Shown: positions 151-17,384 of the stretch, piece after piece | Layout of the letters: each line of letters opens with the position of its first letter | How positions within the stretch are numbered: the stretch's first letter is position 1 | IMG/VR virus record: IMGVR_UViG_3300021440_000019 | Length of the DNA stretch: 20,000 bases | Strand: one strand, 5' to 3' | Source of the DNA: an uncultured virus (IMG/VR IMGVR_UViG_3300021440_000019) | Taxonomy: Duplodnaviria > Heunggongvirae > Uroviricota > Caudoviricetes | Translations under genes and position numbers: made by a program | The notes under the pieces: generated by a model | The model's input: the letters and a program-made list of their open reading frames with translations, nothing else | What the model was told of the DNA's origin: nothing | Databases searched by the model: none

Positions 151-528
151 ATGATCCGTATTGATCCTCTAGACCTCGTGGCCGTCACTGCTGGTGCCGG
201 CAGTACTCCTGTAACCGCGCGAATCGACCTCGACCGCGTGGATCGTTGCCCCGCAATCGGCTGCGGCAAGCCCATGTCCACGATTCTCGCTTCGGACATA
301 CCGTGCTTCATCTGCTGGGAGCACCGTGTAGTGCTGCCGCAGCCGGACCCGGAGCCGGCAACGGCGTCCACGGAACAGGCGTCGCCGGACACCGACGTGA
401 GTGCCGAGCCGCCGATGCCTGTGCCATCGGACTTCCGTGTCACCACGGAGGACCCTGTGGTCGAGGTTGAGAAACCAGGCGCCGGAATCGTCGTGACTTC
501 CGACCCGGAGACGGAGGCACCATGCTGA
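151..528 (+). CDS. small hypothetical protein with putative Zn ribbon and acidic/Pro-rich tail, possibly head-associated
   Basis: CPAIGC...CFICWEH motif. The stop overlaps the start of the portal-like gene. Confidence 0.65.
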   Translation: MIRIDPLDLVAVTAGAGSTPVTARIDLDRVDRCPAIGCGKPMSTILASDIPCFICWEHRVVLPQPDPEPATASTEQASPDTDVSAEPPMPVPSDFRVTTEDPVVEVEKPGAGIVVTSDPETEAPC

Positions 529-2273
529 AGCTCAAGCACGCGGTGCACACACGCGGTGGTGCCAAAGGGTTGCATCCCGTGCTCGGAGTAGCTCCGGGGA
601 ACCGTAGCGGCGCAGCCGCGTTTGCGTCCTCAGGTCCGAAACCGGTGGACCCCGGTGTCCGCGTGGAAGCTGACATCAACTCGTTCTCGGGGATGCAGAA
701 CACGCAGCAGTATTCCATGATCGGGAACTCCGGTCAGCAATACGACACGCTGATGGCGGGGATCCTCAGCGATGACGACCAAGCGAACCTCCGGTTCTAC
801 CGGGACATCTACCGGTATGACAACACTTCGGGTTCCGCAGTCGATCTGCTGTCGATGCTGCCCTTCAGCGACTACGAACTGGTCGGCACCACCAAGGAAC
901 GGAACCGCGTTTACGAATCGAGCACCGAACGTCTGAACCTGAAAACAGCGCTGGTGCCCATGTCAATCGAGTACCTGGTCACCGGGCGGTACGTTGGCAC
1001 GCTGCTGTACCGCAGCAGCACGCGCATGTTCACGGAAATGATGCCGCACCGTGCTGAGGACACCAAGGTCACGCCGAGCCCGTTCTTCGGTGTCGAGCCC
1101 AGTATCGAGGTCAAGCAGAGCGACGTAGTGCAGAAGTTCCTGGAGTCGGAAGACCCGAGGTTCAAACGCATGGCTCAGGCACTGCACCCGAAGTTCCGCG
1201 AAGCCATCAAGGCGCCGTCGATGCTGCTGGACGCGAGCACCACGCTGTACGTGCCGCGAATGGCAGAGGCCACGAACCTATGCGGCATGTCGCTGTACAA
1301 GCGTGTGCTCCCCATCTGGCTGATCGAGAAAGCGCTGTACCGTGGCACGCTCGTCGAGGCGCAACGGAGACAGCGGTCGCTGTTGCACCTGGGTGTCGGC
1401 GACGAAGAATGGGAACCCACGAGCGAAGAACTTCAGGCCATCGTCGCGCTGTTCCAGCAGGCGGACCTGGACCCGTTGGGTGCCATCATCGCCACGCGCG
1501 CAGGTGTCGTCCCGGAAGAACTGCGGCAGGGCGGTGACTTCTGGAAGTACACGGACATGACAGACCTGCTGTCGCCGATGAAGCTCCGGGCGCTCACGAT
1601 TTCCGAGACGTTCCTCAACGGCGAAGCGAACTACAGCAGCATGGAAGTGTCGCTGTCGGTGTTCCTCGACATGCTGAACAACCACCGGAACATGTTCACC
1701 CAGGAGGTCTTCTACAACAAGACGTTCCCGATCGTGGCTGTGACCAACGGGTTCTTCAAGCCCAACGTCAAGACCAAGGAAGTGGCGGACGCGCAGGACC
1801 AGATGCGCATGCAGTACCACATATCCGATGTGTCCAAGCTGGACATTCCCGAGGTACAGTGGAAGAAGCCGCTGAAGCCGACGGCGAACAAGGACTACAT
1901 GGACGTGCTGACCACGCTGGAAGAGAAGGGGTTGCCCATCGGACTGCGCATGTGGGCGGCAGCCGGTGGCGTGGACGCTGATTCCGTGGTCAAGCAAGCG
2001 GAAGAGGAAGTGGAACTGCGCAAGCGTGCCACCGCGATGCGCAAGGGCACGGAGCCAGAAGACGAAGGTCACGCTGCGTTCGCATCGGCGGGCCGGATCG
2101 TCGTCCGCGACAAGTACCCGGAGTACGTGTCGGAAATACGGGGCTCCACGAAGACCGGCGCACCGAAGTACGTGCCGAACCAACGGGCTGCCGCGCAGCG
2201 CATGCACCTCATGGCAGCCACCGCGCTGAAGCGGCTGGCAACGACCTGGACACCGAAAGGAGCACGCAAGTGA
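522..2273 (+). CDS. portal protein (putative)
   Basis: 583 aa with RBS GGAGG. The N-terminal 'FYRDIYRYDNTSGSAVDLLSMLPFSDY' helix pattern and the C-terminal 'ISETFLNGEANYSSMEVSL...PEVQWKKPL' are typical of portals. It lies upstream of a prohead protease. Confidence 0.75.
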   Translation: MLKLKHAVHTRGGAKGLHPVLGVAPGNRSGAAAFASSGPKPVDPGVRVEADINSFSGMQNTQQYSMIGNSGQQYDTLMAGILSDDDQANLRFYRDIYRYDNTSGSAVDLLSMLPFSDYELVGTTKERNRVYESSTERLNLKTALVPMSIEYLVTGRYVGTLLYRSSTRMFTEMMPHRAEDTKVTPSPFFGVEPSIEVKQSDVVQKFLESEDPRFKRMAQALHPKFREAIKAPSMLLDASTTLYVPRMAEATNLCGMSLYKRVLPIWLIEKALYRGTLVEAQRRQRSLLHLGVGDEEWEPTSEELQAIVALFQQADLDPLGAIIATRAGVVPEELRQGGDFWKYTDMTDLLSPMKLRALTISETFLNGEANYSSMEVSLSVFLDMLNNHRNMFTQEVFYNKTFPIVAVTNGFFKPNVKTKEVADAQDQMRMQYHISDVSKLDIPEVQWKKPLKPTANKDYMDVLTTLEEKGLPIGLRMWAAAGGVDADSVVKQAEEEVELRKRATAMRKGTEPEDEGHAAFASAGRIVVRDKYPEYVSEIRGSTKTGAPKYVPNQRAAAQRMHLMAATALKRLATTWTPKGARK

Positions 2274-2774: not shown

Positions 2775-3542
2775 ATGAGACGCATGGATTCCCACTTCGG
2801 CTACGCAGAGTACGCGGATGCCATGAGCCCTGGTGTGCTCGACCTGCACGCAGCAGCGAGAAACAAGTCGCTGATCCTCAGTTCCGAGGGCATCGACGTT
2901 CGTGACTCGTCGGCGGTGAATCTGCTCGGAGCGCAGACCCTGGACTTCCAGATGTGGCTGCCTGCCGCCGCAGTCGAGTACCGCATCAGTCCGAACGTGC
3001 AGGACTACGTGCTGACGCCGGTGCTGACCATCCCCACGGAGCTACCGAACCGGAACTGCGTGGGCTTCCCTCGGCGTGAACTCGTGAAGTTCAACATCGA
3101 GGCCGGCCGTCTCGCGTACAAGACGTTCATCGGCAAGCCCGTGCACGTGGAGCACGACAACGAAGACCCCACGAAGGCAATCGGCGTCATCGTCGATTCT
3201 GTGCTGCGGCCGACTCGTGGCTACGGCGCAGGGCGCATGCACCGGCTGTTCAAGCTGCTGGCAGTGGACCGCACGAAGAACCCGATGATGGCGCAGAAGA
3301 TCATCGACCGGGAAGTCAACACCTACAGCATGGGTGCCTGGGTCAAGAGCTTCGAGTGCAGTTACTGCGGCGCACCGATGGGACGGTGCAGTCACCTGCA
3401 TCCGAATCGGCCGCGAGATTTCTACGAACTGATGGGTCGCCTGGTGTACCGCTGGTGCATCGGTGTCAACGGATTCGAGACTTCAGTGGTGTTCGATCCC
3501 GCGTACTCCGTCGCGGCTTCAGACATCCTGTTCGGCTTGTAA
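2775..3542 (+). CDS. prohead (capsid maturation) serine protease, HK97/herpes-type fold, with Cys/His Zn motif
   Basis: GKPVHVEH (candidate catalytic His), YSMG (candidate catalytic Ser), terminal FETSVVFDPAY (ExSxVxxPA motif) and an inserted CSYC...CSH. It lies downstream of the portal. Confidence 0.8.
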   Translation: MRRMDSHFGYAEYADAMSPGVLDLHAAARNKSLILSSEGIDVRDSSAVNLLGAQTLDFQMWLPAAAVEYRISPNVQDYVLTPVLTIPTELPNRNCVGFPRRELVKFNIEAGRLAYKTFIGKPVHVEHDNEDPTKAIGVIVDSVLRPTRGYGAGRMHRLFKLLAVDRTKNPMMAQKIIDREVNTYSMGAWVKSFECSYCGAPMGRCSHLHPNRPRDFYELMGRLVYRWCIGVNGFETSVVFDPAYSVAASDILFGL

Positions 3543-4949: not shown

Positions 4950-5360
4950 ATGTTGAACCGTCGTCTCTTTCTCCGAGGGGCTGCACTGGCACTAGCAGCC
5001 CCTGCCATCGTGCGCGCATCGTCGATCATGCGCGTGACACCGCTGTCGGTGCCCGAAGCTGTTGCTCCGGTGCCGGCTCCGTACACGAAGATCGCAGTGG
5101 ACCCACGAGGACGCGTCACCTCGATGTACACCGGGGAGGTCGGTGTCATAGAGAACTTCCGGGTCATCTGTGACCAAGCTGTGCCGGTGGTCCCGCGCCG
5201 TACCATCCTCGTCACCGGCCAACAGCGCGCGGCTGACAACGGCGTGTACTTCGTGTCCGTGGGACCCACGATGTTCCCCGAGCTTCGTCGCGTTTCCGAC
5301 CCGCGCAAGGTGCTGCGCGTACGTCCCAACCCCTTCAGCCCCGTAGGAGCCTTCGCATAG
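4950..5360 (+). CDS. Tat-signal protein carrying virion-protein-like motifs
   Basis: NRRLFL twin-arginine motif, h-region GAALALAAPAI and a VRA cleavage-like site. The cargo motifs are YTKIAVDPRGRVT, GEVGVIENFRVI and ILVTGQ..ADNGVY. Confidence 0.7.
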   Translation: MLNRRLFLRGAALALAAPAIVRASSIMRVTPLSVPEAVAPVPAPYTKIAVDPRGRVTSMYTGEVGVIENFRVICDQAVPVVPRRTILVTGQQRAADNGVYFVSVGPTMFPELRRVSDPRKVLRVRPNPFSPVGAFA

Positions 5361-5367
5361 GTGACAC

Positions 5368-5868
5368 ATGACGACACCCTCGTACAAGCGCATCCGCATC
5401 CGAGGCTGTTCGTACATCGTGTACAGTTCGGGCTTGATATGGTCGTGCGCATGGAACAAGTATCTGAGCGCACACCAAGACAAAGACGGGTACAGCATCG
5501 TCTGGATGGGAGGTAAGAAGCGTAAGGTGCATCGAGTTGTGTGCCGAGCCTTTCACGGTACGCCGCCAGAAGGGTACGTAGCCCGCCACAAGAATGGAGA
5601 CACCTCGAACAACAGAGCCTCCAACCTTCAATGGGGTACGACATCGGACAACGAACGTGACAAGTGGAGGCATGGCACGCACAACAAGGGCTCCCGTCAT
5701 GGTAGAAGTCACCTGACGGAAGACATCGTGCTGCGGCTCCGGGCTCTGGTAAAGAAACAACCACCCGGTACCAAGACGGCATTTCTGAAGAGGCAAAGTC
5801 AGAAGTACGGAGCTTCGTGGCAAGCAATAGGACACGCCTGCGCTGGCAGAACGTGGACGCACATCTGA
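5368..5868 (+). CDS. HNH homing endonuclease (HNH_3 type, free-standing)
   Basis: KVHRVVCRAFHG...RHKNGDTSNNRASNLQWGTTSDN, plus a C-terminal helix-turn-helix-like DNA-binding tail. Confidence 0.9.
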   Translation: MTTPSYKRIRIRGCSYIVYSSGLIWSCAWNKYLSAHQDKDGYSIVWMGGKKRKVHRVVCRAFHGTPPEGYVARHKNGDTSNNRASNLQWGTTSDNERDKWRHGTHNKGSRHGRSHLTEDIVLRLRALVKKQPPGTKTAFLKRQSQKYGASWQAIGHACAGRTWTHI

Positions 5869-5877
5869 GAGGTTCAC

Positions 5878-6426
5878 ATGATCTTCAAGTTCACCCGCCG
5901 GTACTGCATGGCTCACCGGTTGATTCAAGGAGGGGCGTCTTCCAAATGCGGGATCGTTCATGGACACAACGAACTGGTCATCGTGGAGTGCCGGCCGACG
6001 GCAGAGTTCAAGCCGGGGCCGAACATGAGCATGGACTTCGGGGATGCCAAGTCCGTGTGGCACGACTGGATCGACAACGCGGTGGACCACAGCTTCCAAC
6101 TCGGGGACGAAGACCCGTTGCTGCCGTGGTTCATCGAGAATGAGCCCCACCGGCTGCCGAGAATCATGGTCACTCCGGGCGATCCGACGACGGAAATGCT
6201 GCTGCTGGTGTTCGCACGGAAGTTCCGCGCGTTGTGCGGTTCCGCCCTGGAACTGATCCGCATCACCGTCGAAGAAACCCCGACGAACTCCGTGACCCTG
6301 GACGTTGCCTTCGCATCGCACACACAGAGCTTCGACGACCAGTGGTTGTTGGCGCCCGCCAACGTGGACCACTGGTGGGATCGTCCGGACCTGAGCATCA
6401 ACGACACCCGCGCGGAAAAGCGCTAA
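5878..6426 (+). CDS. queD: 6-carboxy-5,6,7,8-tetrahydropterin synthase (QueD/PTPS family)
   Basis: AHRL...KCGIVHGHN (Zn-binding His residues and catalytic Cys), MDFG, DH, PTTE and EETPTN motifs. Confidence 0.9.
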   Translation: MIFKFTRRYCMAHRLIQGGASSKCGIVHGHNELVIVECRPTAEFKPGPNMSMDFGDAKSVWHDWIDNAVDHSFQLGDEDPLLPWFIENEPHRLPRIMVTPGDPTTEMLLLVFARKFRALCGSALELIRITVEETPTNSVTLDVAFASHTQSFDDQWLLAPANVDHWWDRPDLSINDTRAEKR

Positions 6427-6439
6427 CTGAGGAGCAACC

Positions 6440-7261
6440 GTGAACGCTGTTACCACCCCCGAGGTACCCCTGGTCCCCGTGAACGACTTCGCCGCGTACG
6501 TTCCGCTGGCTACGCGCACGAAGTCGCCAGGGATCATGCGACCCACGTTGACACCACTGGGAGAACCAGTGCTCGGCGACGATGGCAAGCCGAAGACGCA
6601 CTGCATTGCCGCAGGCCCCGTGATCGACTTCTGCCACTTCGTCATCGGCATGAAGTCCGAGTCCGGGGAGACCGTCGGCGATGTCAAGTCCGCGCTGTTC
6701 TACGGCAAGGAGTTCAACGTCGCCAACTTCTACGGGGAACTCGGTGACCTCTGGTGGTACACGGCTGTGGGCGTCTCCGCGTTCAACTCCGTGATGGACA
6801 AGCTGGGGTTCCCGCTGTACACCGTGAACGTGGACGAGTACGTCGGCCAAGCGCAGGGCTTCGCGCGCAAGCTCGTCACTGGTGCTGGTGACCAGCGTCT
6901 GTTCTCGGGACTCACGCTTGTGGACGAATGGGCCACGAAGCTCATGCACGTGGTGTGCGAAATCCGTGTGGAACTGCCGATCTGGCACCACACGGAGTGG
7001 GCGTTAGAACGAGAAGACGCTGCACGGCTGTCCATCCAGGTGCAGCAAACGGTGGCCGCCCTCGTCGGACTCAGCGCTGCGTTCTACGACATGGAGCGGC
7101 AACACGTTGTCCCGGGGCTGCAAGACACGTGGGCACGGAACATCCGCAAGCTGCGAATCCGCTACCCCGATGCGTTCTCCACGGTACTCGCCATCGAACG
7201 GGGTACGCAAGCTCAGGAGCTGGCAGCGCTCGGCGAGGGTACCGCAAGTGTGGAGCCGTGA
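6440..7261 (+). CDS. MazG-like nucleotide pyrophosphohydrolase (extended)
   Basis: IGMKSESGETVGDVKSALFYGK...GELGDLWWY and C-terminal NIRKLRIRYPDAF. GTG start with RBS GAGGAG. Confidence 0.8.
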   Translation: MNAVTTPEVPLVPVNDFAAYVPLATRTKSPGIMRPTLTPLGEPVLGDDGKPKTHCIAAGPVIDFCHFVIGMKSESGETVGDVKSALFYGKEFNVANFYGELGDLWWYTAVGVSAFNSVMDKLGFPLYTVNVDEYVGQAQGFARKLVTGAGDQRLFSGLTLVDEWATKLMHVVCEIRVELPIWHHTEWALEREDAARLSIQVQQTVAALVGLSAAFYDMERQHVVPGLQDTWARNIRKLRIRYPDAFSTVLAIERGTQAQELAALGEGTASVEP

Positions 7262-7499
7262 CCCAGCAATCCAGGAGCTATGCGTCTCACGGATTCTCGA
7301 AGTCTCGGGCACTCGTGACCCGCTAGCTCGCGCACGGCGAGCACTCCAGTACATCGAGCACCTGGCTGCGTACCCTGCGGAAGCAGGCGACAACCCTGTG
7401 AGGTACACGCCGGTCATGGCAGCGTATGCCTTAGCCGCTTATCGTGAATCACCACAGGAGCACGTACGTGAACGAACCGGAGAACCTGGATCGGGATGA
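7248..7499 (+). CDS. small hypothetical protein
   Basis: 3' part of track ORF 7107-7499. GTG at 7248 follows GAGG, and the ORF fills the gap between the MazG-like gene and the next gene. Confidence 0.45.
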   Translation: MWSRDPAIQELCVSRILEVSGTRDPLARARRALQYIEHLAAYPAEAGDNPVRYTPVMAAYALAAYRESPQEHVRERTGEPGSG

Positions 7500-7770
7500 A
7501 CTAGACCTCGGAGACAACCATGTCCTGGTGTTCGCCGGGTACAAAGGTGAACCACGAGTCGGAGCCAGCGTCGCGCATCTGAAGCCCGACGGCAGTCAGT
7601 GTGATGGCTGGATCGCGTTCTCCGACCGCGCATGGGCACGCGAGTTCTCCGGAGGCATCGCTACATGGGTCGTCGAGCAGGAGCAGCCGCTGACGCTGAG
7701 TCCAAGCATTCTCTGCCGCGTGTGCGGGGACCACGGGTTCGTACGCCAGGGTCGTTGGGTACGCGCGTAA
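7468..7770 (+). CDS. DUF6527-like small metal-binding protein
   Basis: C-terminal TLSPSILCRVCGDHGFVRQGRW plus an upstream H...C. GTG at 7468 follows AGGAG. Confidence 0.7.
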   Translation: MNEPENLDRDELDLGDNHVLVFAGYKGEPRVGASVAHLKPDGSQCDGWIAFSDRAWAREFSGGIATWVVEQEQPLTLSPSILCRVCGDHGFVRQGRWVRA

Positions 7771-7782
7771 CCACGTCAGGAC

Positions 7783-7823
7783 AAAAAAGGGGGGTGCCAC
7801 TGTCGCCGGTGGCACCCCCTTTC
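7783..7823. terminator. bidirectional rho-independent terminator
   Basis: AAAAAAGGGGGGTGCCAC-loop-GTGGCACCCCCTTT, lying between the convergent + and - gene blocks. Confidence 0.85.
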
Positions 7824-7837
7824 TCGTTTCCGCGCTC

Positions 7838-8665
7838 TCACACGCGGAAGATCACGCCCTCTGGTCCGAACACGATGCCGAGGTCTGCGCCCGTGATGTT
7901 CGAGCGCTCCATGTCCGTGAGGTACACGCGCCGGACTTCGTTCTTGGCGATCATGCCCTTGATGAAACCGATGCAGGCACCTCGGTACTTCTCGACGACC
8001 CCTTGGTTCGCTTTGCCCTTCAGTTGCTTCAGGTGCTTCGTTTCCGGATCGTACTCGATGGTTGCGTGCGGCTGATCGTTGCCATCGCGCAGGCTGAAGA
8101 TGTGGATTTCTCCTGCTTCGACCCTTCGCGTGTACGACATGCCTTCGTTGCCGACGCAGTGACCCATGAACGCGCTCTCGTTGCGCAGCGCCTTGGCGGT
8201 CTTGAGATCCCACCATGCGTAGCCGTTGCCGTAGCGGTGCACCAGCGTTTTGTCTTCTTCCTTCTCGGTCACCCGTTCTTCCACACGGGTGCGCTCGATG
8301 GCTCGGTGTCCTTCGGTCACCGCACGGTCGAACTTCACGGTGTTCAACTGCTTGATCCCCGAGGCTTGCAACGCCAGTAGATACGCGGTGCACGCATCCA
8401 CGTCCTCACGGAACTGCTGGAAGTCGTTGTCCTCGGGGTCGAACTCGTACACGAGAACGCCAGCCGGAAACGCCTTGAGCATCCACGGCTTACTCCGGTA
8501 CTCGCGCATGAGGTCGGTCACGGTAAGCCGACGGAAGGCAGCAACCTCCGTCAGCAACCACTTCTTCCCCACAGTCTTGATCCACTCGCCGATCTTCGGG
8601 TTCTTGTCCCGTGCGAGTTCCTCCAGCGCGGCGTCCAATGTTTCCGGGTTGCTCACGTTCTTCAT
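7838..8665 (-). CDS. PcfJ-like domain protein
   Basis: LRNESAFMGHCVG...IFSLRD...PHATIEY...QLKGKAN signature. RBS GAGG. Confidence 0.8.
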   Translation of the reverse strand: MKNVSNPETLDAALEELARDKNPKIGEWIKTVGKKWLLTEVAAFRRLTVTDLMREYRSKPWMLKAFPAGVLVYEFDPEDNDFQQFREDVDACTAYLLALQASGIKQLNTVKFDRAVTEGHRAIERTRVEERVTEKEEDKTLVHRYGNGYAWWDLKTAKALRNESAFMGHCVGNEGMSYTRRVEAGEIHIFSLRDGNDQPHATIEYDPETKHLKQLKGKANQGVVEKYRGACIGFIKGMIAKNEVRRVYLTDMERSNITGADLGIVFGPEGVIFRV

Positions 8666-8689
8666 CGTTGATCCCTCGTTACGGAGGCA

Positions 8690-9538
8690 TCATGGAGTGC
8701 CCCACTTGACAATTGCTTGAACCGGACCTGTGGGAGCTTCCGCAGCGGCAACCGGTGCCGCCGGTGCTTCCGCAGCAGCCTTCGCACCGGTCACTCGACG
8801 GATCACCCACATGTCATCGACGAGACGCCTGGGGTCCGTGAACCAGTCCTGCGTCATCTTGTAGTACCCGAGCATGCCCCACCGCCGACCCCACGAGTTG
8901 CGGACCCACACGAACGGCTTGCTCGGGCGATCGTCGTAACCCGCTGCCATCACCGCGTGGCCCCCGAGCAACTGTTCTTCCAGCGTCGGAAGCTCCAGAA
9001 CCCAAGGGCTGCTCAAAGCGTCGAACTTCTCCGGCACTGCGAAACCGAACACCACGGGGTGCCCGTCAGCCAGCGACTGCTTGAGCCCCATGAGTGTGGA
9101 CACTCGTGCGTACTCGAAGCCTGCGGTGAGCAGCGCACGGAGCGCGGTAGCTTCGTCATACGCCTTGGCTGCCGGCTTTTCCGCGTACCGCTGAGGCACG
9201 TACGGCCACGAACGCTCGGTGGCAACGCCCGTGCGGAAGAAGCTCTTGATGACGCTGCGGATCATCGCGCCGCCGTCTTCGTTCACGTCGCCTTCCGCTT
9301 CACGGCCGTTGTAGTACGCCATCAGCCGGGATAGCTGCGTGCCGGCCGTCACGATTTCCACAGCGGACGTGCTGGCGTTGCCCGTGCACGAACCCAACTG
9401 ACCCTGATCTTCGATGGGGTTGCCCATGCCGATGCGGTCCACAAATCTCGGCAGCGGTCGGTCAGGCTTTACCGCTGCATAGCGGTCACGGTGGTCGGGT
9501 ACATCGGGCTTCCAGGTGTAGTAACGCTTGCTCATCAT
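8690..9538 (-). CDS. papain-like cysteine peptidase (family C1)
   Basis: DQGQLGSCTGN (oxyanion Gln and catalytic Cys), GGHAV (His) and VRNSWG (Asn). The start was moved to ATG 9538, which follows GGAG. Confidence 0.92.
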   Translation of the reverse strand: MMSKRYYTWKPDVPDHRDRYAAVKPDRPLPRFVDRIGMGNPIEDQGQLGSCTGNASTSAVEIVTAGTQLSRLMAYYNGREAEGDVNEDGGAMIRSVIKSFFRTGVATERSWPYVPQRYAEKPAAKAYDEATALRALLTAGFEYARVSTLMGLKQSLADGHPVVFGFAVPEKFDALSSPWVLELPTLEEQLLGGHAVMAAGYDDRPSKPFVWVRNSWGRRWGMLGYYKMTQDWFTDPRRLVDDMWVIRRVTGAKAAAEAPAAPVAAAEAPTGPVQAIVKWGTP

Positions 9539-9588
9539 CGACTCCAAGGGGTTAAGGGGAGCCTCGAAGGCGAACGTACCCGAAGGTG

Positions 9589-9891
9589 CTAAACAGTGGT
9601 GTTCGGCGACGTACTGGAGATAGCCCCCACGAAGTCACCGGACACCGGATCACCAAGTCGCGCTGCGGGCAACCCGTTGACGTTCACGCTGGTGTCGCCA
9701 CCGACGATGCTCGCGCTGTGCCCACAGTCAGTGACCACAGGGTCACCAAGTCGCGCTGCGGGCAACCCGTTGACGTTGACGTTGGGTGAACCACCGACGA
9801 TGGACGCGCCGACCACGATAGGATTCTCGTGCGCAGGGTGGAAACAGGTGCCGCTACACCTATCAAATAAGCGAGCCGCTGAAATTCCCAA
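9589..9891 (-). CDS. PAAR-domain protein (contractile-tail spike tip)
   Basis: AARLFD plus two NVNGLPAARLGDP repeats, with Cys/His metal ligands. TTG start after GGAGG. Confidence 0.92.
   Translation of the reverse strand: MGISAARLFDRCSGTCFHPAHENPIVVGASIVGGSPNVNVNGLPAARLGDPVVTDCGHSASIVGGDTSVNVNGLPAARLGDPVSGDFVGAISSTSPNTTV
9650..9777. repeat. 35-bp exact direct repeat inside the PAAR gene
   Basis: TCACCAAGTCGCGCTGCGGGCAACCCGTTGACGTT at 9650-9684 and 9743-9777. Confidence 0.85.
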
Positions 9892-9906
9892 GATGGACCT
9901 CCGTGT

Positions 9907-10599
9907 TTACGCCATGGAATGCAACCGCGCGGCCATCCCCGCCATGAAGTTCTCGCTGATGTCCTTGATACCCGTGTGCGAGAACGACAAGTTGGCAGCC
10001 TGCTTGGCGTTGAGCCGCAGCGAAGTCACCTCGTGAGCAAGCAACGTGGCGCGCTCGGTCGTGAACGTGGCCGCATGCACCAGGCACGACGTGAGGTTCA
10101 CCAGGTCTTTGACACCGGAGGCTCCGACGGCAGCCGCGAAGTCTTTCAGTGCATCGCGCGTCTGCCCGAGGAACGTGTCGATTTCATGCAGCGCTGCGGT
10201 GAACACAACCGCCTTGTCTAGAGCGGAGAGCGCAGCACTGAGTTCGGAGCCGACGGCGAGGACCCCTGACTTGATCTTGGCAAGCAGCGCGTCCACCGCA
10301 GTGGTCAACCCGTTCAGGAAGTCCCCGCTGGCGGTGAACGCGATGACCCCGCAGATGCTGTGCGTCGGGTTGTCCGTGAGCGTGCCCAACGACTTTGCCA
10401 TGGCGTTCACCGTGGACACGTGCTGCATGAAGCCGCCGTAGAACGAAGCTAGCTGCTGTGGCACAGACGTAGCCATCCCCGCCACTCTGATCTTCGCCGT
10501 CAGCAAGTCCGCCTTGGTACCCGGAGCCAAGTTCGTGCCAGAGGCAATCGCCTGATCGAGCTTGGACTGTATGTCGTGGAGTTTGGTTGCGAGCGTCAT
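9907..10599 (-). CDS. hypothetical Ala/Leu-rich helical protein
   Basis: Start at ATG 10599 (MTLATKLHD) with RBS AAGGA and an ATGA overlap with the upstream gene. It lies just upstream of the PAAR gene. Confidence 0.7.
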   Translation of the reverse strand: MTLATKLHDIQSKLDQAIASGTNLAPGTKADLLTAKIRVAGMATSVPQQLASFYGGFMQHVSTVNAMAKSLGTLTDNPTHSICGVIAFTASGDFLNGLTTAVDALLAKIKSGVLAVGSELSAALSALDKAVVFTAALHEIDTFLGQTRDALKDFAAAVGASGVKDLVNLTSCLVHAATFTTERATLLAHEVTSLRLNAKQAANLSFSHTGIKDISENFMAGMAARLHSMA

Positions 10600-10958
10600 G
10601 ATCCGTCCTTGAACAGCGGGTTGTCCGGTGGTGTCCACAAGCCGGTCGCATACAGGTAGTCCCTGGCTCTGCGGTCAAGCTCGTCGGGCACGAAGTCGAA
10701 GGCGTACCCCGCGTAGTCACGCCACGACTGATTGTCCTCATCGAAGTCGCTGAGCTTGTACTCTATGGTCTCCCGTAGGTGCTCGAACAGCGAGGTCAGT
10801 CCCTTGAACTGCTCAGGGGTTGCCACCGGTCGTCGGCGACTGGCCGTACCGAAGGCTTCAGCGTACCGCAAGCTCGTGTTGCCATCGACCTCGGCTGTAA
10901 CCACGTCGTACGCCCAACTGAGGTAGTCTTCGAGGTCGAGTCCAGGTAGGCTAGACAT
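10596..10958 (-). CDS. hypothetical acidic protein
   Basis: 3' portion of track ORF 10596-11165 from MSSLPGLDLEDY. It overlaps the stop of the upstream gene. Confidence 0.65.
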   Translation of the reverse strand: MSSLPGLDLEDYLSWAYDVVTAEVDGNTSLRYAEAFGTASRRRPVATPEQFKGLTSLFEHLRETIEYKLSDFDEDNQSWRDYAGYAFDFVPDELDRRARDYLYATGLWTPPDNPLFKDGS

Positions 10959-11310
10959 AGGGCGCCCAATGCGTTGGGTAGAACACGCTGCCGGATTCAG
11001 CACACCAGCCTTCGGTGTACGCACCGTCGGCAGCGCTCTCGAAGAACCCACGGACTTCGACCACGGTGCCGCCGGGATCACTCGCGTACGTGCCCCGAAG
11101 CCACAGCACAGCACCGTGGACTTGCGGAGCGCTGGCAATCCCACGGAAGTCCCACGGCAGACCATGGAGCTTGCGGTACGCGAGGTCTGTTGCGGCCCAC
11201 TGCTGCTCCACGAGCGCGGCTACCGCAGGCGTTTGCTTTGCGGTCATCAACTCGTGCAGCACCGTACCCGGCGCCACCAGGGTGTCCTTGTACTTCAGGT
11301 ACGTCTTCAC
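10951..11310 (-). CDS. hypothetical protein with DUF551-like C-terminus
   Basis: Ends in PTHWAP, as in the 'THW.P' tail of DUF551 proteins. GTGA coupling with the upstream gene. Confidence 0.6.
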   Translation of the reverse strand: MKTYLKYKDTLVAPGTVLHELMTAKQTPAVAALVEQQWAATDLAYRKLHGLPWDFRGIASAPQVHGAVLWLRGTYASDPGGTVVEVRGFFESAADGAYTEGWCAESGSVFYPTHWAPYV

Positions 11311-11501
11311 GCTCGCTCCAGCCGGATGTAGTGCTCTCCGTACCCGTCAGCTAGGCAGACGTTGCCGGTTACCTCAGGGCCCTTGCCATCGGCGTCGAAC
11401 CCCGTAGAACCGAGCGCGGCATCCACGAGCTTGGACTCCTCTTCGGTGGGCAGCAGCACCAGGATCTTCCGGCCATCGAAGTCACGGATTTGAACTTGCA
11501 T
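11307..11501 (-). CDS. small hypothetical protein
   Basis: ATG at 11501 after GGAGG; 64 aa; coupled to both neighbours. Confidence 0.65.
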   Translation of the reverse strand: MQVQIRDFDGRKILVLLPTEEESKLVDAALGSTGFDADGKGPEVTGNVCLADGYGEHYIRLERA

Positions 11502-11937
11502 ATGCACCTCCAGGGGTTGTTCGTAACTTGGGCGCGAACGTAAGGACCATGTAGCTAGAGAGCCTTACGGGTTTCCACATCACCATCAAGCCGATGAGCC
11601 CGGTGTCGATCACGGACATCGGGTTGTTGCGGGCGTCACAGACGACCAGCGCATCGTGGATGTCTCGACGTTGCTTGTACGGCGCCAGCAACGCTTCCAT
11701 CTGCGTTCTCAACTCGGTCCTCAACAGGTCATCTTGAGGATCCCACGCATGCGTTTCCAGGAAACTCAAGTACAGTTCGGTCACGTTGTCAGCGATGGCA
11801 CGACTCGTCTTTAGAACGCGCACGGGGTCCGCAGGTGTGCTGCCTGGAGTGGCTTGCACATCAGGGGACACTGCGGCACCTGCTTTCGGTACGAGTATCG
11901 AAATGGAGAGGGCTTTGAGGAGGTCACGTCTTTTCAC
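11482..11937 (-). CDS. Tat-signal-like peptide fused to a tail-sheath C-terminal domain
   Basis: GTG at 11937 after AAGGT gives MKRRDLLKALSISILVPKAGA. The segment WDPQDDLLRTELR...LLAPYKQRRDIHDALVVCDARNNPMSVIDTG...KPVRLSSYMVLTF matches the sheath C-terminal pattern (FEPND..TR......FL......I.DF.VVCDE.NN...VID.......KP.....I.L.F). Confidence 0.75.
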   Translation of the reverse strand: MKRRDLLKALSISILVPKAGAAVSPDVQATPGSTPADPVRVLKTSRAIADNVTELYLSFLETHAWDPQDDLLRTELRTQMEALLAPYKQRRDIHDALVVCDARNNPMSVIDTGLIGLMVMWKPVRLSSYMVLTFAPKLRTTPGGAYASSNP

Positions 11938-14578: not shown

Positions 14579-15745
14579 TCAACCGGTAGTCGGGGGTTCC
14601 GTCGGGGAACCGTTGGAATACGCCGACAGGTGTCTGCGCAGCCGCTCCAGCACTGCGCGCCCGGTTGTGTCTCGGAGTCCGAGGTACTCCAAGGCGAGTT
14701 TCATGAAGCGTTGGTTCGCCGCGCGCTCCAGATACTCCGAAGAACTGCTGCGAATCCCGTGTGTCGTGCTCAGCCATTGGTTGAACTCCTTGTCTTCGTA
14801 CCCCATGAACAACGCGATCAGCCGTTGCTTCTTGGACAGCCGTAACTCCGGTGGCACGGGTGTGCCCATCGGTGGAAACAGCACCCTGTGGTCAACATGC
14901 GCGGTGCCCTTGGGGAACAGATTGAATGCGCGTCCGATGTCGATCACGCGGTCCCTGTTCTCTCGTTCGTCAGGTGCGTGCAACTCGTGCGTCTCTGTCA
15001 GGTCGTGAATGGCAACGACCTTGTTCGTAAACGTGTCGCCTTCGCGGACAACACGTGCACGCTTCTCGTGCGTCTGTTGGATTATCAGGTTGATCCCGAA
15101 GTTGTGCGCGGCTGACTTGACGATGTTCGTCGCGTGCAGCAGGCTCTCAACCTTCGGGTACGTGAGGTACAGTGCGTGTACGCCCTTGGCGAACACCTGC
15201 ATTGCCATGTCGTGCGCTTGCAAGCCCTGCTGCTGGTACACGAACCTCATCTTCCGATGCACGAACTTGCCGAGCCAGTCACGCATCCTCTGGTGGATCG
15301 TCACGATGTGCCTGTCGAAGCACGAGAGCGTCAGCGCAGGATACCGCAACGCCGTCTTCTTCAACGCCGTGAGCAACGCCGGAGACATCAGCAGTCGCAG
15401 GCACGTGTCTGCTTCACGCACGTTGAATGCTGGTGCGACCTTCGCTGCGGTAACGCCGCGTAGCCCACGCTTGACGCACCAGAACAGCCAGCACTTCACC
15501 TCCTTGACGACGTACCCGGAGTCCGTGATGGCTTTCCACATCGCCTTGTAGTCGAGGGAACCGAACGCGGAGCGCGCTTGCACCTGTAGTTGCTTGTACG
15601 TCGTGTGCCTGAAGATCGTGCTCAGCATCATCTGCACCCACTGCTGCTGCTTGTACTTCGGCAGCGTCAGGAACCTTGGGTCAGCCTCGCCACTGAGCTT
15701 CGTAACGATGTCGCACTCACGTGCGTTCGATTGTGAACGACCCAT
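14579..15745 (-). CDS. hypothetical protein, possibly a divergent sigma-factor-like transcription factor
   Basis: 388-aa basic, helical ORF. The segment 'KFVHRKMRFV...HDMAMQVFAKGVHALYLTYP...NIVKSAAHNFGINLIIQQTHEKR' loosely follows sigma region 2. The function is weakly supported. Confidence 0.55.
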   Translation of the reverse strand: MGRSQSNARECDIVTKLSGEADPRFLTLPKYKQQQWVQMMLSTIFRHTTYKQLQVQARSAFGSLDYKAMWKAITDSGYVVKEVKCWLFWCVKRGLRGVTAAKVAPAFNVREADTCLRLLMSPALLTALKKTALRYPALTLSCFDRHIVTIHQRMRDWLGKFVHRKMRFVYQQQGLQAHDMAMQVFAKGVHALYLTYPKVESLLHATNIVKSAAHNFGINLIIQQTHEKRARVVREGDTFTNKVVAIHDLTETHELHAPDERENRDRVIDIGRAFNLFPKGTAHVDHRVLFPPMGTPVPPELRLSKKQRLIALFMGYEDKEFNQWLSTTHGIRSSSSEYLERAANQRFMKLALEYLGLRDTTGRAVLERLRRHLSAYSNGSPTEPPTTG

Positions 15746-16502
15746 CTTTGCCCCTTGTCAGCGTCTTCTTCATCTTGGCCTTGGTCTTGGCGTCCGCGAT
15801 CTTCTTCGACTTCTTGATGTTGCCGGTGATCGCATGCATCGCCTCTTCCTTGAAGAGCTTGACGCGACGCTTGTCTAGCCAGTGCTGTGGCACGGAATCG
15901 AGTGATGGGGGCACATACTCGGCGGGTTTGACGGCCAGGGTGTCACGGTACGCGAGCCACTCGTCTCGGGGCATCTGCAACTCGTCGTACAGCGTCGGCC
16001 TGCCGTTCTTCTTCGGCTCGATGACGCGGTTTGCGCTGATGAGCGAGCGCTTGCGCTTCTCCCACTTGGCGAACGTCAGCACGGACTCGGGCATCAACGT
16101 GACCATGGTGTTGCCGTCACCGTCACGCAGCGACGAACTGACGTACACGAACTGCTTGTCCTTGGACACGCTGACGATGCGTCCTCGGAAGTAGTTCTGC
16201 ACGTACTCCTGGCCGACGCAGAAGTACACCGGCTGGCCGAACTCGTAGCCGGCTTTCTGGAGGTAGGAGCCACCTCTGATAGCCATTGCCATGACTTGCA
16301 GTTCGGGGTCCCGCATGGAGCGGAACAGCAGTCGCATGACCTTGAGTACGTTCTGATGTGCTGAGGCCAGAAGCGTTGGGTCCGGCACGTACAGTTCGCA
16401 GGCGGTTGCGGTTGCAAGCACACCGAGCTTGATGCACGGTTTCTTCGCTGACGCGTGAGGGACCTTCTCGTGGTGAATGCACGACTGGCACTTGTTTGGC
16501 AT
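15717..16502 (-). CDS. hypothetical protein with N-terminal Cys cluster and SH3-like middle
   Basis: CQSCIHH...C....C cluster and a Lys-rich C-terminus. The start is either ATG 16502 or GTG 16541. Confidence 0.7.
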   Translation of the reverse strand: MPNKCQSCIHHEKVPHASAKKPCIKLGVLATATACELYVPDPTLLASAHQNVLKVMRLLFRSMRDPELQVMAMAIRGGSYLQKAGYEFGQPVYFCVGQEYVQNYFRGRIVSVSKDKQFVYVSSSLRDGDGNTMVTLMPESVLTFAKWEKRKRSLISANRVIEPKKNGRPTLYDELQMPRDEWLAYRDTLAVKPAEYVPPSLDSVPQHWLDKRRVKLFKEEAMHAITGNIKKSKKIADAKTKAKMKKTLTRGKDGSFTIERT

Positions 16503-16543
16503 TGAGAGGGCTGACCCTCCTTCTTCTCTTTTCAATTGCACGG

Positions 16544-16984
16544 CTACTCGCTCCTCTTTAGCGGTTGGACTTGTGTGGCATACAGGAATTCGATTGCGGC
16601 TTCCATAGCCGCTTGGTCACTCCGCAAGTGCGGGTGCATCGCCCTATACGCATTCCACATGCGCTGATGGACGATACCGAATTTGAATGCCTTGTTCACG
16701 GGTTTCTCGACGTTGACCACGGCGAGGAAACTCGTGTAGATCACTTGGGTCAGGTACTGGAGTTTGCGGACTTGTGCGGCATCGCCGCTGAACCTCCTTG
16801 CGTGTGGTGGATGAAAGGCTTCGACGTGGATGACTGCGTGGTGGCGAGCGCAAAGGGAAACCGTTGGCCCGTGCAGACCTCCACACGACTTGGGAACTAG
16901 ATGGTGGTCGTGAAGACCGTCATCACTAGGGCATACCCAACAACGGTCAAGTGCTATGGTTTTCGTGATCGGGATGTCAGACAT
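16544..16984 (-). CDS. HNH endonuclease (Zn-finger, McrA-like)
   Basis: CWVC...HDHHLVPKSCGG...LCARHHAVIH. Confidence 0.85.
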   Translation of the reverse strand: MSDIPITKTIALDRCWVCPSDDGLHDHHLVPKSCGGLHGPTVSLCARHHAVIHVEAFHPPHARRFSGDAAQVRKLQYLTQVIYTSFLAVVNVEKPVNKAFKFGIVHQRMWNAYRAMHPHLRSDQAAMEAAIEFLYATQVQPLKRSE

Positions 16985-17153: not shown

Positions 17154-17384
17154 CTAGCCCGATTCGGGTGCCATCGCACGGCCAATGAGCCGTAGCCCGC
17201 ATCGTCTGCACCTGAAGGCCCGAGCGCAGCACTCAAGCGCGCCGGCTTGCCCTCTGTGACAGTCCCATTCTCGTCGTTCTTCCCCGGTGGTACTGACTCG
17301 CTCCGCGTACCCATTGCAAGTGCAGCACACAACGTCGGCTTCGCGGTCCACGACTTCCGCCAGGATCATCGTCGTTTCGGTCAT
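17154..17384 (-). CDS. small Cys-rich Zn-ribbon protein
   Basis: CCTC...C...CC...CRRC; ATGA coupling at 17381-17384. Confidence 0.65.
   Translation of the reverse strand: MTETTMILAEVVDREADVVCCTCNGYAERVSTTGEERREWDCHRGQAGALECCARAFRCRRCGLRLIGRAMAPESG

Follow-up and report, generated by a model that had tools for sequence, protein, structure and literature searches.

The window, a 20,000-nucleotide stretch of DNA from an uncultured virus (IMG/VR record IMGVR_UViG_3300021440_000019), comes from a jumbo-type phage and carries genes for portal, prohead protease, QueD, MazG, PAAR, NAD-ligase, and topoisomerase II. Two small open reading frames (ORFs), here called P0001 and P0002 (Table 1), were found as an earlier note on this DNA had described them. 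We scanned all six frames from 992 candidate starts, each followed by 50 codons or more. The pattern RR.[FLIVM][LIVMF] within the first 14 residues, with a hydrophobic 12-mer after it, occurred at these two loci only. Since two loci alone among 992 starts carry it, this pattern is not common noise.

Table 1. Positions of the two genes, their parts, and the adjoining ORF in the window
Feature	Coordinates	Strand	Basis
P0001, 136-aa gene, member of the Tat-type-leader/variable-cargo family	4950..5360	+	ORF, translation, leader HMM
Predicted Tat-type signal peptide, P0001 residues 1-23	4950..5018	+	Sequence reading, PF10518, family consensus
Conserved post-signal motif S-S-I-M of P0001	5019..5030	+	Leader comparison
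P0001 cargo, residues 28-136: Pro-rich linker and unique sequence	5031..5357	+	Comparison with P0008 and P0009
P0002, stand-alone ORF corresponding to the T4-type tail sheath C-terminal domain	11482..11937	-	PHROG, BLASTP, PDB, Atlas
61-aa ORF between ligase and P0002	11958..12143	-	Sequence; exact protein on record

The ATG of P0001 lies 4 nt downstream of the stop codon of the preceding gene. The protein begins with NRRLFLR (residues 3 to 9), followed by a short h-region of 12 uncharged residues (G10 to V21, including Pro18), then V-R-A, two serines, and a Pro-rich stretch; the signal would be cleaved after A23. The only curated models touched by P0001 were Tat-signal models, both below their cutoffs (PF10518, 12.9 bits against a cutoff of 22.7, E = 0.11; TIGR02811, 13.4 bits). 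A leader HMM trained on other phages, with the window excluded, scored P0001 at 44.3 bits (E = 2e-13). These observations bear out the earlier proposal that the gene opens with a Tat-type signal. Over 23 residues, the P0001 leader shares 70% identity with the N terminus of a bacterial ORF of 344 aa. An identical P0001 protein is on record in contigs of 76,691 and 229,055 bp, and the gene has a GC3 of 0.72 and a GC2 of 0.51.

P0001 itself had no match in PHROG, Pfam, or PDB, and its ESM Atlas model had a pLDDT of 0.43. Residues 36 to 104, approximately, weakly resemble one or two tail-fibre repeat units: the top pairwise match of the cargo to a tail-fibre repeat was 39% over 62 aa (E = 5e-5). 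P0008 and P0009 match phrog_38058 ("tail fiber protein"), and the match of P0008 to the P0001 cargo (E = 8.4e-8) was spread over 13 repeat stretches. The best match of this cargo to head proteins had an E value of 0.16, and none was detected in four related jumbo phages.

All 151 residues of P0002 align with the C-terminal domain of the T4-type tail sheath gp18 (its last ∼140 to 150 residues), at 27 to 29% identity to T4-type sheaths. In BLASTP comparisons, residues 3 to 147 matched residues 781 to 920 of a 924-aa cyanophage sheath (E = 1e-12), and residues 3 to 145 matched residues 513 to 650 of Ac42 gp18 (E = 5e-11). Matches were also obtained to phrog_23 tail sheath (E = 1.6e-8), to the sheath structures 9ev2 (E = 6.9e-5) and T4 gp18 3j2m (E = 0.012), and to Phage_sheath_1C clusters in the ESM Atlas (TM, 0.67). 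At least 80% of P0002 was covered in 294 of the 448 phage records that match it, and among the 20 matches listed the gene was a sheath gene in every case. The earlier claim of structural-protein fragments in both genes therefore holds strongly for P0002, and only weakly, as a tail-fibre repeat likeness, for P0001.

The same note had read KRRDLLK at the start of P0002 as a Tat signal. This stretch falls on the conserved sheath motif (H/Q)RDRLY..(I/V)NP, with R4-D5 aligned to the R-D of sheaths, and K18 limits the putative h-region to 9 uncharged residues. No curated Tat model matched P0002 at E ≤ 10; the leader HMM gave 0.1 bits, placing it outside the leader family; and in public gene calls the start is V39 (giving 113 aa) or V23, downstream of the RR. 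As far as its sequence can be read, P0002 is without a signal peptide and is not a Tat protein. The match to gp18 spans the whole length of P0002, taking in the C-terminal end as well as the RDRLY..NP motif. Unlike gp18, however, P0002 stands alone after the ligase gene and the 61-aa ORF, and no sheath N-terminal domain was found anywhere in the window. The ATG of the 61-aa ORF overlaps the ligase stop codon (ATGA); this ORF, which showed no sheath likeness and no PHROG match, separates P0002 from any upstream sheath sequence.

Membership of both window genes in one system joining a Tat tag to a virion fragment is very improbable. Both are small, start with RR and a hydrophobic stretch, and carry virion-like sequence. 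Against this, the N terminus of P0002 is itself homologous to sheath and has the non-Tat features given above, and the two genes lie 6 kb apart on opposite strands with no link found between them. The two-gene system is largely refuted, and the shared design claimed for the genes is not supported: P0002 is a sheath homologue, and the window holds two unrelated things, a member of the leader family and a sheath fragment.

The most likely reading of P0002 is a gene fragment, atypical in composition, that was captured or arose by duplication. Its GC3 is 0.64, against 0.75 to 0.84 in most window genes; a word search found no similar small homologue; gene callers disagree on its start; and short "sheath C-terminal" clusters in the Atlas are possibly contig-end fragments. 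It is tentatively possible that P0002 is instead a working protein. The sheath C-terminal domain makes inter-subunit contacts, and a free copy would donate a strand to the growing sheath. It would thereby terminate or initiate the sheath in the tail of its own phage, or poison the T4-type sheaths of competitors. The frame is intact across the whole domain and stops where sheaths stop. Homology runs from the GTG start codon on, and AAGGTG, 5 nt upstream of it, is a plausible ribosome-binding site. P0002 is also nearer to T4-type sheaths (about 145 aligned residues) than to sheaths of related jumbo phages (58 to 74), and phage PaBG already has two sheath-like frames. The type VI secretion sheath is made by two genes, TssB/TssC, and gp25/TssE has a sheath-like domain; these offer precedents for a split sheath or for a lone sheath-type domain at the sheath end. 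However, the TssB/TssC split points differ from that of P0002, and a partner gene is not visible in the window.

The leader of P0001 heads a much larger group. In an all-against-all HMMER search, we found two small proteins with the leader alone in common. The near-invariant consensus that defines the family, RRxFL...AAPAIVRA-xS(L/I)M, spans about 27 residues. A profile search detected the leader in 763 small-protein clusters at E ≤ 0.01, from 4372 candidates, and 57 viral loci in IMG/VR carry it in ORFs of 74 to 242 aa; two copies were present at 8 of these loci and four in one 62-kb genome. No Pfam or PHROG family matched, our literature search found no paper describing the family, and tblastn did not find it in cultured phages, where the filter probably masks the leader. 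From these searches, the leader appears to define a large, widespread, undescribed, and modular phage family. A modular family of the kind proposed earlier is supported, on a scale beyond anything visible in the window, and comparable fusions occur in other phages.

Among curated models, none but Tat models matched the family repeatedly. PF10518 matched 16 of 30 members (E ≤ 1), TIGR02811 9, and TIGR01409 6; most members scored below the curated cutoffs. A Met lies four residues past V-R-A in all 64 distinct leaders, and in 58/58 once six loci found by a Met-containing pattern were excluded; the invariance is partly search-made, as shared words or patterns (AAPAIVRA, AIVRASS[LI]M) were used. 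Across the 64 leaders, synonymous codons were used freely at conserved residues (Ser, TCN and AGY; Arg, CGN and AGR), and codon comparison shows the leader to be under protein-level selection. The cargo frame stays open for a median of 77 codons, compared with 15 in other frames, and at least 40 open codons were found in 61 of 63 cargo frames versus 31 of 126 other frames; by this measure, cargo reading frames are shown to be maintained. The 176 cargos fall into 137 BLASTP clusters, and they read as soluble, with a transmembrane-like stretch in one.

At E ≤ 1e-3, 29 of the 176 cargos matched one of 24 head proteins, whereas no reversed or shuffled cargo did; the other 147 were without detectable head-protein likeness. 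On 21 phage contigs, 13 of 28 members matched a protein of their own genome at E ≤ 0.01 (11 the major capsid protein, 2 the portal), compared with 4 of 315 control ORFs. The earlier idea of a Tat signal joined to a virion-protein fragment thus holds for the family. All 13 own-genome matches were in-frame capsid or portal segments, and the own capsid protein was the top match for 10 of 14 members. Identity to the own-genome head copy was just 44 to 72%, with conserved motif residues kept. Because random capture would sample all genes and frames, this pattern points to selection for head-protein likeness. An annotated 303-aa capsid protein was tiled by 20 of the 176 cargos, with nonadjacent segments joined in some; four cargos match its last 31 to 36 residues (pairwise E = 7e-11 and 4e-9). 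Among cargos matching a major capsid protein, the match lay in the N-terminal quarter for 13, in the C-terminal quarter for 7, and in internal regions for 7. In total, 16 of 28 members were tied to head proteins; the others, P0001 among them, were without assignment. Together with the controls, the alignments show many cargos to be apparent linear mosaics of 20- to 65-residue segments taken from head proteins of the same phage: from the major capsid protein, its N-terminal arm, its C-terminal end, or motifs in its interior, and in some cases from the portal. In these descriptive parts of our explanation we have high confidence.

Family loci have mixed contexts. At 17 of 49 loci, the gene for the terminase large subunit is no more than three called genes away, and at 22 of 49 some packaging or head gene is; several loci lie among replication genes.

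The family leader resembles Tat signal peptides (PF10518, TIGR01409) in its RRxFL near the N terminus, short and weakly hydrophobic h-region (rich in Ala and Gly), Pro before the c-region, basic c-region residue, and V-x-A site. Ordinary Tat signals, in contrast, vary freely outside the RR, whereas the AAPAIVRA-xS(L/I)M of the leader hardly changes among hundreds of unrelated cargos. Those cargos also differ from usual Tat cargo, being peptides of 30 to 200 residues, many of them copied from cytoplasmic virion proteins. The T4 internal proteins (IPI-III, Alt), which carry a capsid-targeting sequence, likewise combine a short shared N-terminal leader with unrelated, fast-evolving small proteins in several copies per genome. 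However, the T4 leader is a hydrophilic sequence that the phage's own prohead recognizes and the prohead protease cleaves. The family leader is Tat-like and does not differ between phages whose capsid families are unrelated, and capsid likeness lies in the variable part of the family proteins. Where phage is mentioned in the available portion of a 2026 Tat review, no phage-encoded Tat substrate is named.

The layout shared with T4 internal proteins would suit a capsid-addressed effector, in which the head-protein mimic is the address, slotting into or binding the phage's own procapsid or portal, and the invariant, hydrophobic RR leader is a payload that travels in the virion to the next host's membrane. 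The frequent top match to the own capsid protein, the placement of many genes beside terminase, portal, or head genes, and the invariance of the leader despite unrelated capsid families agree with such a role. We nonetheless judge it improbable: the leader shows every part expected of a cleavable Tat signal, the only curated models that match it are Tat models, mosaics of short segments in non-native order are unlikely to fit a capsid lattice, and many loci lie among replication genes. Capsid N-arm and C-terminal segments make subunit and scaffold contacts in P22 and HK97, and these are segments that the cargos copy. The fragments could act in the cytoplasm by binding capsid protein, scaffold, or portal, either poisoning head assembly of coinfecting relatives and satellites or reporting on the phage's own assembly, as a checkpoint in which the protein is exported only while unbound. 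The position of family genes near late genes and the divergence of the cargos from the own copy favor this interference or control of assembly; yet in most cases the closest match is the own capsid protein, which would demand a way around self-poisoning, and a cytoplasmic poison has no need of a Tat signal. We regard it as rather unlikely. Similarly unlikely is that the family consists of ordinary exported accessory proteins, acting in superinfection exclusion or periplasmic envelope modification, for which head fragments were mere raw material and the likeness has no present function. The Tat-type leader, the accessory and variable placement, the tandem copies, the solubility of the cargos, and the absence of detectable head-protein likeness in most of them are as expected of such proteins, but in-frame capsid or portal segments in every own-genome match, with motifs kept despite divergence, are not.

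A short linear segment of capsid protein sets off Lit in the Lit/Gol system. Bacterial defence systems often respond to capsid and portal proteins, and the available portions of two sources describe no phage-encoded fragment of either as a decoy (PMC13728456, PMC13581612). The triggers given for CapRel, Thoeris, CBASS, SpbK, and Avs in the portions available are the same two proteins that supply the family cargos, the major capsid protein and the portal; a link of the leader family to defence we infer only. A mimic of a ligand that activates a sensor could, instead of blocking that sensor, set it off.

The explanation we prefer overall, which blends this description with a mechanism, we hold at about even chances; its mechanistic part, bait plus export, is a tentative proposal from sequence. 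The leader would bring the protein to the host Tat translocon. It does not vary between phages whose capsid families are unrelated, which suggests a conserved partner in the host rather than in the phage. The cargo would serve as bait that passes for capsid or portal protein of the same phage, and would most likely bind a factor that reads those segments, either a host capsid or portal sensor or an assembly protein of a competitor or satellite. The bound factor would then be held at the membrane or exported piggy-back via Tat, a route akin to Tat "hitch-hiker" co-export.

The earlier note had joined P0001 and P0002, two small genes opening on twin-arginine motifs, into one system of Tat signals fused to virion-protein fragments that would work as a bait plus export tag. 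Six-frame scanning of the window (992 possible starts) for an RR motif within the first 14 residues and a subsequent hydrophobic stretch returned these two loci alone; as a string pattern, therefore, what the note described does exist. The design thought to be common to both genes did not survive, however: a leader HMM built from 62 leaders, all from other phages, scored P0001 at 44.3 bits (E 2e-13) and the P0002 frame at 0.1 bits. P0001 thus belongs to, and P0002 falls outside, a family of phage proteins in which an N-terminal leader of about 27 residues (RRxFL...AAPAIVRA-xS(L/I)M) precedes a variable C-terminal part, here called the cargo.

P0002 reads as a captured or duplicated C-terminal domain of a tail sheath protein. 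Among PHROGs it matched number 23, 'tail sheath,' over positions 392-460 of the 496 in that profile (E 1.6e-8), and by tblastn it matched 448 phage records, in 294 of which a single place spans at least 80% of the query; the 20 matches listed all coincide with genes for the tail sheath in T4-type phages. By BLASTP, residues 3-147 corresponded to 781-920 of the 924-aa S-SZBM1 sheath (28%, E 1e-12) and residues 3-145 to 513-650 of the 661-aa Ac42 gp18 (27%, E 5e-11). In both alignments the K-R-R-D-L-L-K of P0002 falls on the sheath motif (H/Q)RDRLY..(I/V)NP, and the supposed hydrophobic stretch is the strand after that motif. Solved sheaths were also matched (9ev2, E 6.9e-5; T4 gp18, 3j2m, E 0.012), and the ESM Atlas model fell on Phage_sheath_1C clusters (TM 0.67); against Pfam, with its sheath entries PF04984 and PF17482, there was no match at E ≤ 10. 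The putative h-region runs for nine uncharged residues before K18 breaks it (the Tat standard is about 12 or more), none of the Tat models matched at E ≤ 10, and public gene calls begin the protein at V39 or V23. Taken with the sheath-motif homology and the leader HMM score, these results dispose of the Tat signal that had been proposed for P0002.

When the window was searched by tblastn with two full sheaths, only 11497-11934 was matched, and N-terminal sheath domains were absent. A 61-aa ORF upstream of P0002, whose ATG overlaps the stop of the ligase gene, was considered as the missing sheath piece and rejected because it is unrelated to sheaths. The GC3 of P0002 is 0.64, compared with 0.75-0.84 in most genes of the window and 0.63-0.66 in the two HNH genes, which suggests foreign or decaying DNA. 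P0002 could on that account be a relic, but its frame is intact and ends at the sheath end, homology runs from the start codon on, and AAGGTG lies 5 nt upstream of the start. That it is still functional, for example by capping or poisoning the polymerisation of sheaths, we regard as possible but somewhat doubtful. In related jumbo phages the homologous stretch was found only within full-length frames (Motura, GR11A, and two in PaBG), and these jumbo-phage sheath frames align with P0002 over just 58-74 residues. The two frames in PaBG (KF147891.1; loci L072 and L074) are separate, encode 551 and 545 aa, and both match the sheath C-terminal domain, so sheath paralogues exist in this jumbo-phage group.

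For P0001, the proposed Tat signal held up in anatomy but not in score. Residues 3-9 read N-R-R-L-F-L-R, where the Tat standard is (S/T)-R-R-x-F-L-K and the leader family consensus N-R-R-x-F-L. Read by eye, the h-region spans G10-V21 (12 uncharged residues) with the helix breaker Pro18, and the c-region offers V21-R22-A23, a putative small-x-small cleavage site with a basic residue in it, then S-S-I-M and a Pro-rich stretch; the ATG lies 4 nt past the stop of the upstream gene. The curated models that P0001 touched were Tat models, all scoring under their cut-offs (PF10518, 12.9 bits against a curated cut-off of 22.7), and P0001 was not among the matches of TIGR01409. A bacterial ORF of 344 aa, a Tat protein otherwise unrelated to P0001, begins with a signal 70% identical to the P0001 leader over 23 residues.

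Searched with HMMER against 1.84 billion representatives, P0001 had seven matches at E ≤ 1e-3. Besides P0001 these comprise four long proteins with repeats and a pair of small ones, of 87 and 120 aa, that share with it only about the first 35 residues. A profile of P0001 and this pair, searched over lengths of 47-238 aa only, picked out 763 of 4372 candidates, all small proteins, at E ≤ 0.01. Scanning IMG/VR for the peptide AAPAIVRA returned 200 stretches, 77 of them confirmed, in 57 loci (ORFs of 74-242 aa; two family copies in 8 of the 57). Comparable leader-cargo fusions, which the earlier idea required, are present in other phages. AIVRASS[LI]M occurred as a pattern in 55 stretches across 185,579 species genomes, and just six loci, all in MAGs, were confirmed. 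Pfam, PHROGs, and NCBIfam hold no model for the leader family, with weak PHROG matches in 2 of 30 members tested. Its recurring curated matches were to Tat-signal models only: at E ≤ 1, PF10518 matched 16 of the 30 (best 1.9e-4), TIGR02811 nine, and TIGR01409 six. A tblastn search of cultured phages with the leader gave no matches, the query probably being masked as low complexity; matches in Rhodobacter phages were rejected because they run antisense to the genes annotated there. In the literature, searched without supplements, we found no paper with 'APAIVRA' and no description of such Tat-leader/head-fragment phage proteins, and where a 2026 Tat review speaks of phage it mentions no Tat substrate encoded by one (PMC13673990).

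Conservation of the leader is partly imposed by the word- and pattern-based searches. Outside the search patterns, the first Arg is kept in 98% of 64 distinct leaders, and the Ser two residues past V-R-A in 91%. The Met four residues past V-R-A is present in all 64, or in 58 of 58 once six loci whose pattern included it are removed. Conserved residues vary in codon family (Ser TCN/AGY, Arg CGN/AGR, Leu CTN/TTR), and this free use of synonymous codons argues for selection on the leader peptide and led us to reject a recombination site or an RNA element. A RiPP-type leader was likewise rejected, modifying enzymes being absent among the neighbors, as was a lipoprotein or spanin, given the missing lipobox cysteine and a transmembrane-like stretch in 1 of 176 cargos.

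Genomic context was surveyed for 273 neighbor ORFs in 49 loci, called by a crude greedy rule and assigned at E ≤ 1e-5 for the first 150 and 1e-8 for the remaining 123. The terminase large subunit lay within three genes in 17 of the 49 loci and any packaging or head gene in 22; other loci adjoin Holliday-junction resolvases, NinB, DNA polymerase or primase, or methyltransferases, and no constant partner gene was seen across the 49. The start codon of the member often overlaps the stop of the upstream gene. At one locus (L033, 5635-6339), a serine recombinase/DNA invertase lies two genes downstream of the family member, probably by coincidence since such a neighbor occurred in one locus only.

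The cargos are genuine coding sequence. Their frames stay open for a median of 77 codons before a stop, whereas the two alternative frames do so for 15; at least 40 codons are reached by 61 of 63 cargo frames, versus 31 of 126 alternative ones, and the GC3>GC2 signature is present. They are also highly diverse: 176 distinct cargos (median length 68 aa, Cys absent from 112) fell into 137 BLASTP clusters, the biggest holding five. The first clue to their nature came when one member gave a weak tblastn match to a protein of 303 aa annotated as major capsid protein. In pairwise alignments, two members correspond to the final 33-36 residues of this protein with 44-45% identity (E 4e-9 and 7e-11), and 20 of the 176 cargos match it at E ≤ 0.05. 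Between them the matches tile its residues 2-39, 48-67, 73-127, 136-149, 234-251, and 265-303; some cargos fuse segments that are not neighbors in it, in one case with the order reversed. Across the family, 29 of 176 cargos matched a set of 24 head proteins at E ≤ 1e-3, 27 to capsid and two to portal proteins, with none among reversed or shuffled cargos; at E ≤ 0.01 the numbers were 42 versus one and four, respectively. By position, 13 of the capsid matches fell in the N-terminal quarter, seven in the C-terminal quarter, and seven internally.

For a comparison of cargos with their own genomes we took 21 phage contigs from IMG/VR (28-102 kb; several are rated as complete), in which the leader HMM identified 28 members, at most four per genome. 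Thirteen of the 28 cargos match their own genome outside themselves at E ≤ 0.01, 11 at the major capsid protein and two at the portal; the targets were typed by their likeness to an annotated capsid protein, to PHROG-typed capsid and portal proteins, and to cultured-phage genes annotated as P22-type coat, capsid, or portal. As a control, 315 small, coding-like ORFs from these genomes were stripped of their first 30 residues and compared likewise; 4 gave matches. Against small databases, one per capsid family, 14 members were capsid-like at E ≤ 0.01, and for 10 of these the best match was their own capsid protein. Adding the two portal cases brings the members linked with head proteins to 16 of 28. 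The complete 62-kb genome G005 (the contig of locus L063) carries four leader-family genes, at about 2.9 kb and 48.0-50.2 kb. Three of them are clustered and two of these three are tandem copies, of which one copies the N-terminal 64 residues of a P22-type coat protein (52%, E 8e-19) and the other a C-terminal and an internal segment of the same protein. From these alignments, many cargos appear to be pieces of head proteins; virion-fragment cargo, as first proposed, is thus evident for part of the family, and the remaining cargos were unmatched in the 24-protein set.

The P0001 cargo is a singleton among the BLASTP clusters. P0001 matched no PHROG or Pfam model, nothing meaningful among PDB sequences, and nothing in four related jumbo phages at E ≤ 10; its ESM Atlas model is poor (pLDDT 0.43), with no usable matches. 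The best match of its cargo in the 24-head-protein set (E 0.16) was not significant, and a match to capsid_maj_N4 of NCBIfam (E 0.18) was discounted as too weak. In residues ~36-104 there is a likeness to one or two copies of the 27-residue repeat of some giant proteins (E 8.4e-8 when 13 repeats are summed; best pairwise E 5e-5), which themselves match PHROG 38058 'tail fiber protein.' This weak likeness is in keeping with the virion-fragment theme. The suggestion that both genes carry fragments of structural proteins is therefore upheld by the sheath domain of P0002 and only faintly echoed in P0001.

The window (GC, ~61%) comes from a phage whose portal is 34-40% identical to jumbo-phage portals, e.g., those of PaBG, Motura, PhiXhv-12, and Vibrio phage GR11A, and the exact proteins are present on public contigs of 76,691 and 229,055 bp. 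The membrane-anchored protein encoded between the prohead protease and P0001 carries a transmembrane helix at its N-terminus, together with a poly-proline linker and a pair of internal repeats that look Ig-like; its gene is followed by a G+C-rich hairpin, and the product would be a second envelope-directed protein of the head-gene region. P0005 was considered as a relative of P0001 and rejected, the two sequences being unrelated on comparison. The genes for the PAAR protein, C1 peptidase, and PcfJ-like protein form a consecutive trio downstream of P0002 on its strand, and several minus-strand genes have no assigned function. An HNH-like ORF and an unknown gene separate the PHROG 17701 protein gene from the subunit-A-like gene; a GTG ORF at 17381-18802 overlaps the latter by ~375 nt, so the true start of the GTG ORF probably lies further downstream. 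No duplicates of any small ORF and no tRNAs were found in the window, promoter and terminator scans around P0001 and P0002 gave nothing exceeding chance, and the searches made found no close relatives of either protein.

Features of the window discussed in the text
Feature	Coordinates	Strand	Remarks
Portal	522-2273	+	phrog_16240, E 1.6e-145
Head maturation protease	2775-3542	+	
Membrane-anchored protein with Ig-like repeats, 286 aa	3570-4430	+	Big_7 E 0.059
Small gene P0005	4514-4945	+	
P0001, 136 aa	4950-5360	+	
HNH endonuclease	5368-5868	+	Directly 3' of P0001
QueD-like PTPS	5878-6426	+	
MazG-like protein	6440-7261	+	
PcfJ-like protein	7838-8665	-	
Papain-family C1 peptidase	8690-9547	-	
PAAR protein	9589-9891	-	
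P0002, 151 aa	11482-11937	-	
61-aa ORF, then NAD-dependent DNA ligase		-	Upstream of P0002
'DNA topoisomerase' PHROG 17701 protein	15717-16541	-	
Second HNH-like ORF	16544-16984	-	Between topoisomerase-related genes
Topoisomerase II subunit-A-like protein	18427-19884	-	

The leader is the same in phages whose capsid proteins span at least four unrelated sequence families, so its partner should be a conserved host machine; given the leader anatomy, the Tat translocon and signal peptidase would be the obvious candidates. Cargos follow the head proteins of their own phages and keep the conserved motif residues of these at 44-72% identity, and for that reason the likeness itself seems to be selected. 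Capsid and portal proteins figure as prominent triggers of bacterial immunity in the relevant parts of two papers (PMC13728456, PMC13581612). The reading we tentatively prefer, and hold to be possible rather than probable, joins bait and Tat signal and comes near the idea of the earlier note: the cargo would be recognized as if it were a capsid or portal protein, and the Tat signal would tether or remove whatever binds it. The members may instead be capsid-addressed effectors, may interfere with head assembly or act as a checkpoint of it, or may be ordinary exported accessory proteins assembled from head-gene scraps.

A more specific form of the bait-plus-Tat reading, a portable bait and export tag in which linear capsid or portal mimics capture their readers and Tat tethers or expels them, strikes us as rather unlikely. 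The captured factors might be host sensors of the CapRel, Avs, Thoeris, or CBASS type, or else rival or satellite assembly factors, and they would be dragged to the Tat translocon and there tethered or expelled by piggy-back export. The lone sheath domain of P0002 could be a leaderless case of the same habit of making decoys from virion fragments.

Capsid and portal proteins rank among the main molecular patterns on which phage detection by bacteria relies, and phage escape has until now been put down mainly to mutation of these proteins. If true, bait plus export tag would be a new counter-defense principle and would explain how a fixed leader goes with cargos that track the head proteins of their own phage. 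The family would also be the first described of phage-encoded Tat substrates. With one fixed leader and short cargos it offers an experimental handle, the predictions being Tat dependence, binding partners, and effects on defense or co-infection. For annotation, P0002 is a reminder that what looks like a twin-arginine motif where a small ORF begins can be no more than conserved structural-protein sequence. That a family present in hundreds of uncultured phages joins a putative export signal to short copies of capsid and portal proteins suggests an unrecognized layer of phage biology, whether of decoys, assembly control, or capsid-addressed effectors.
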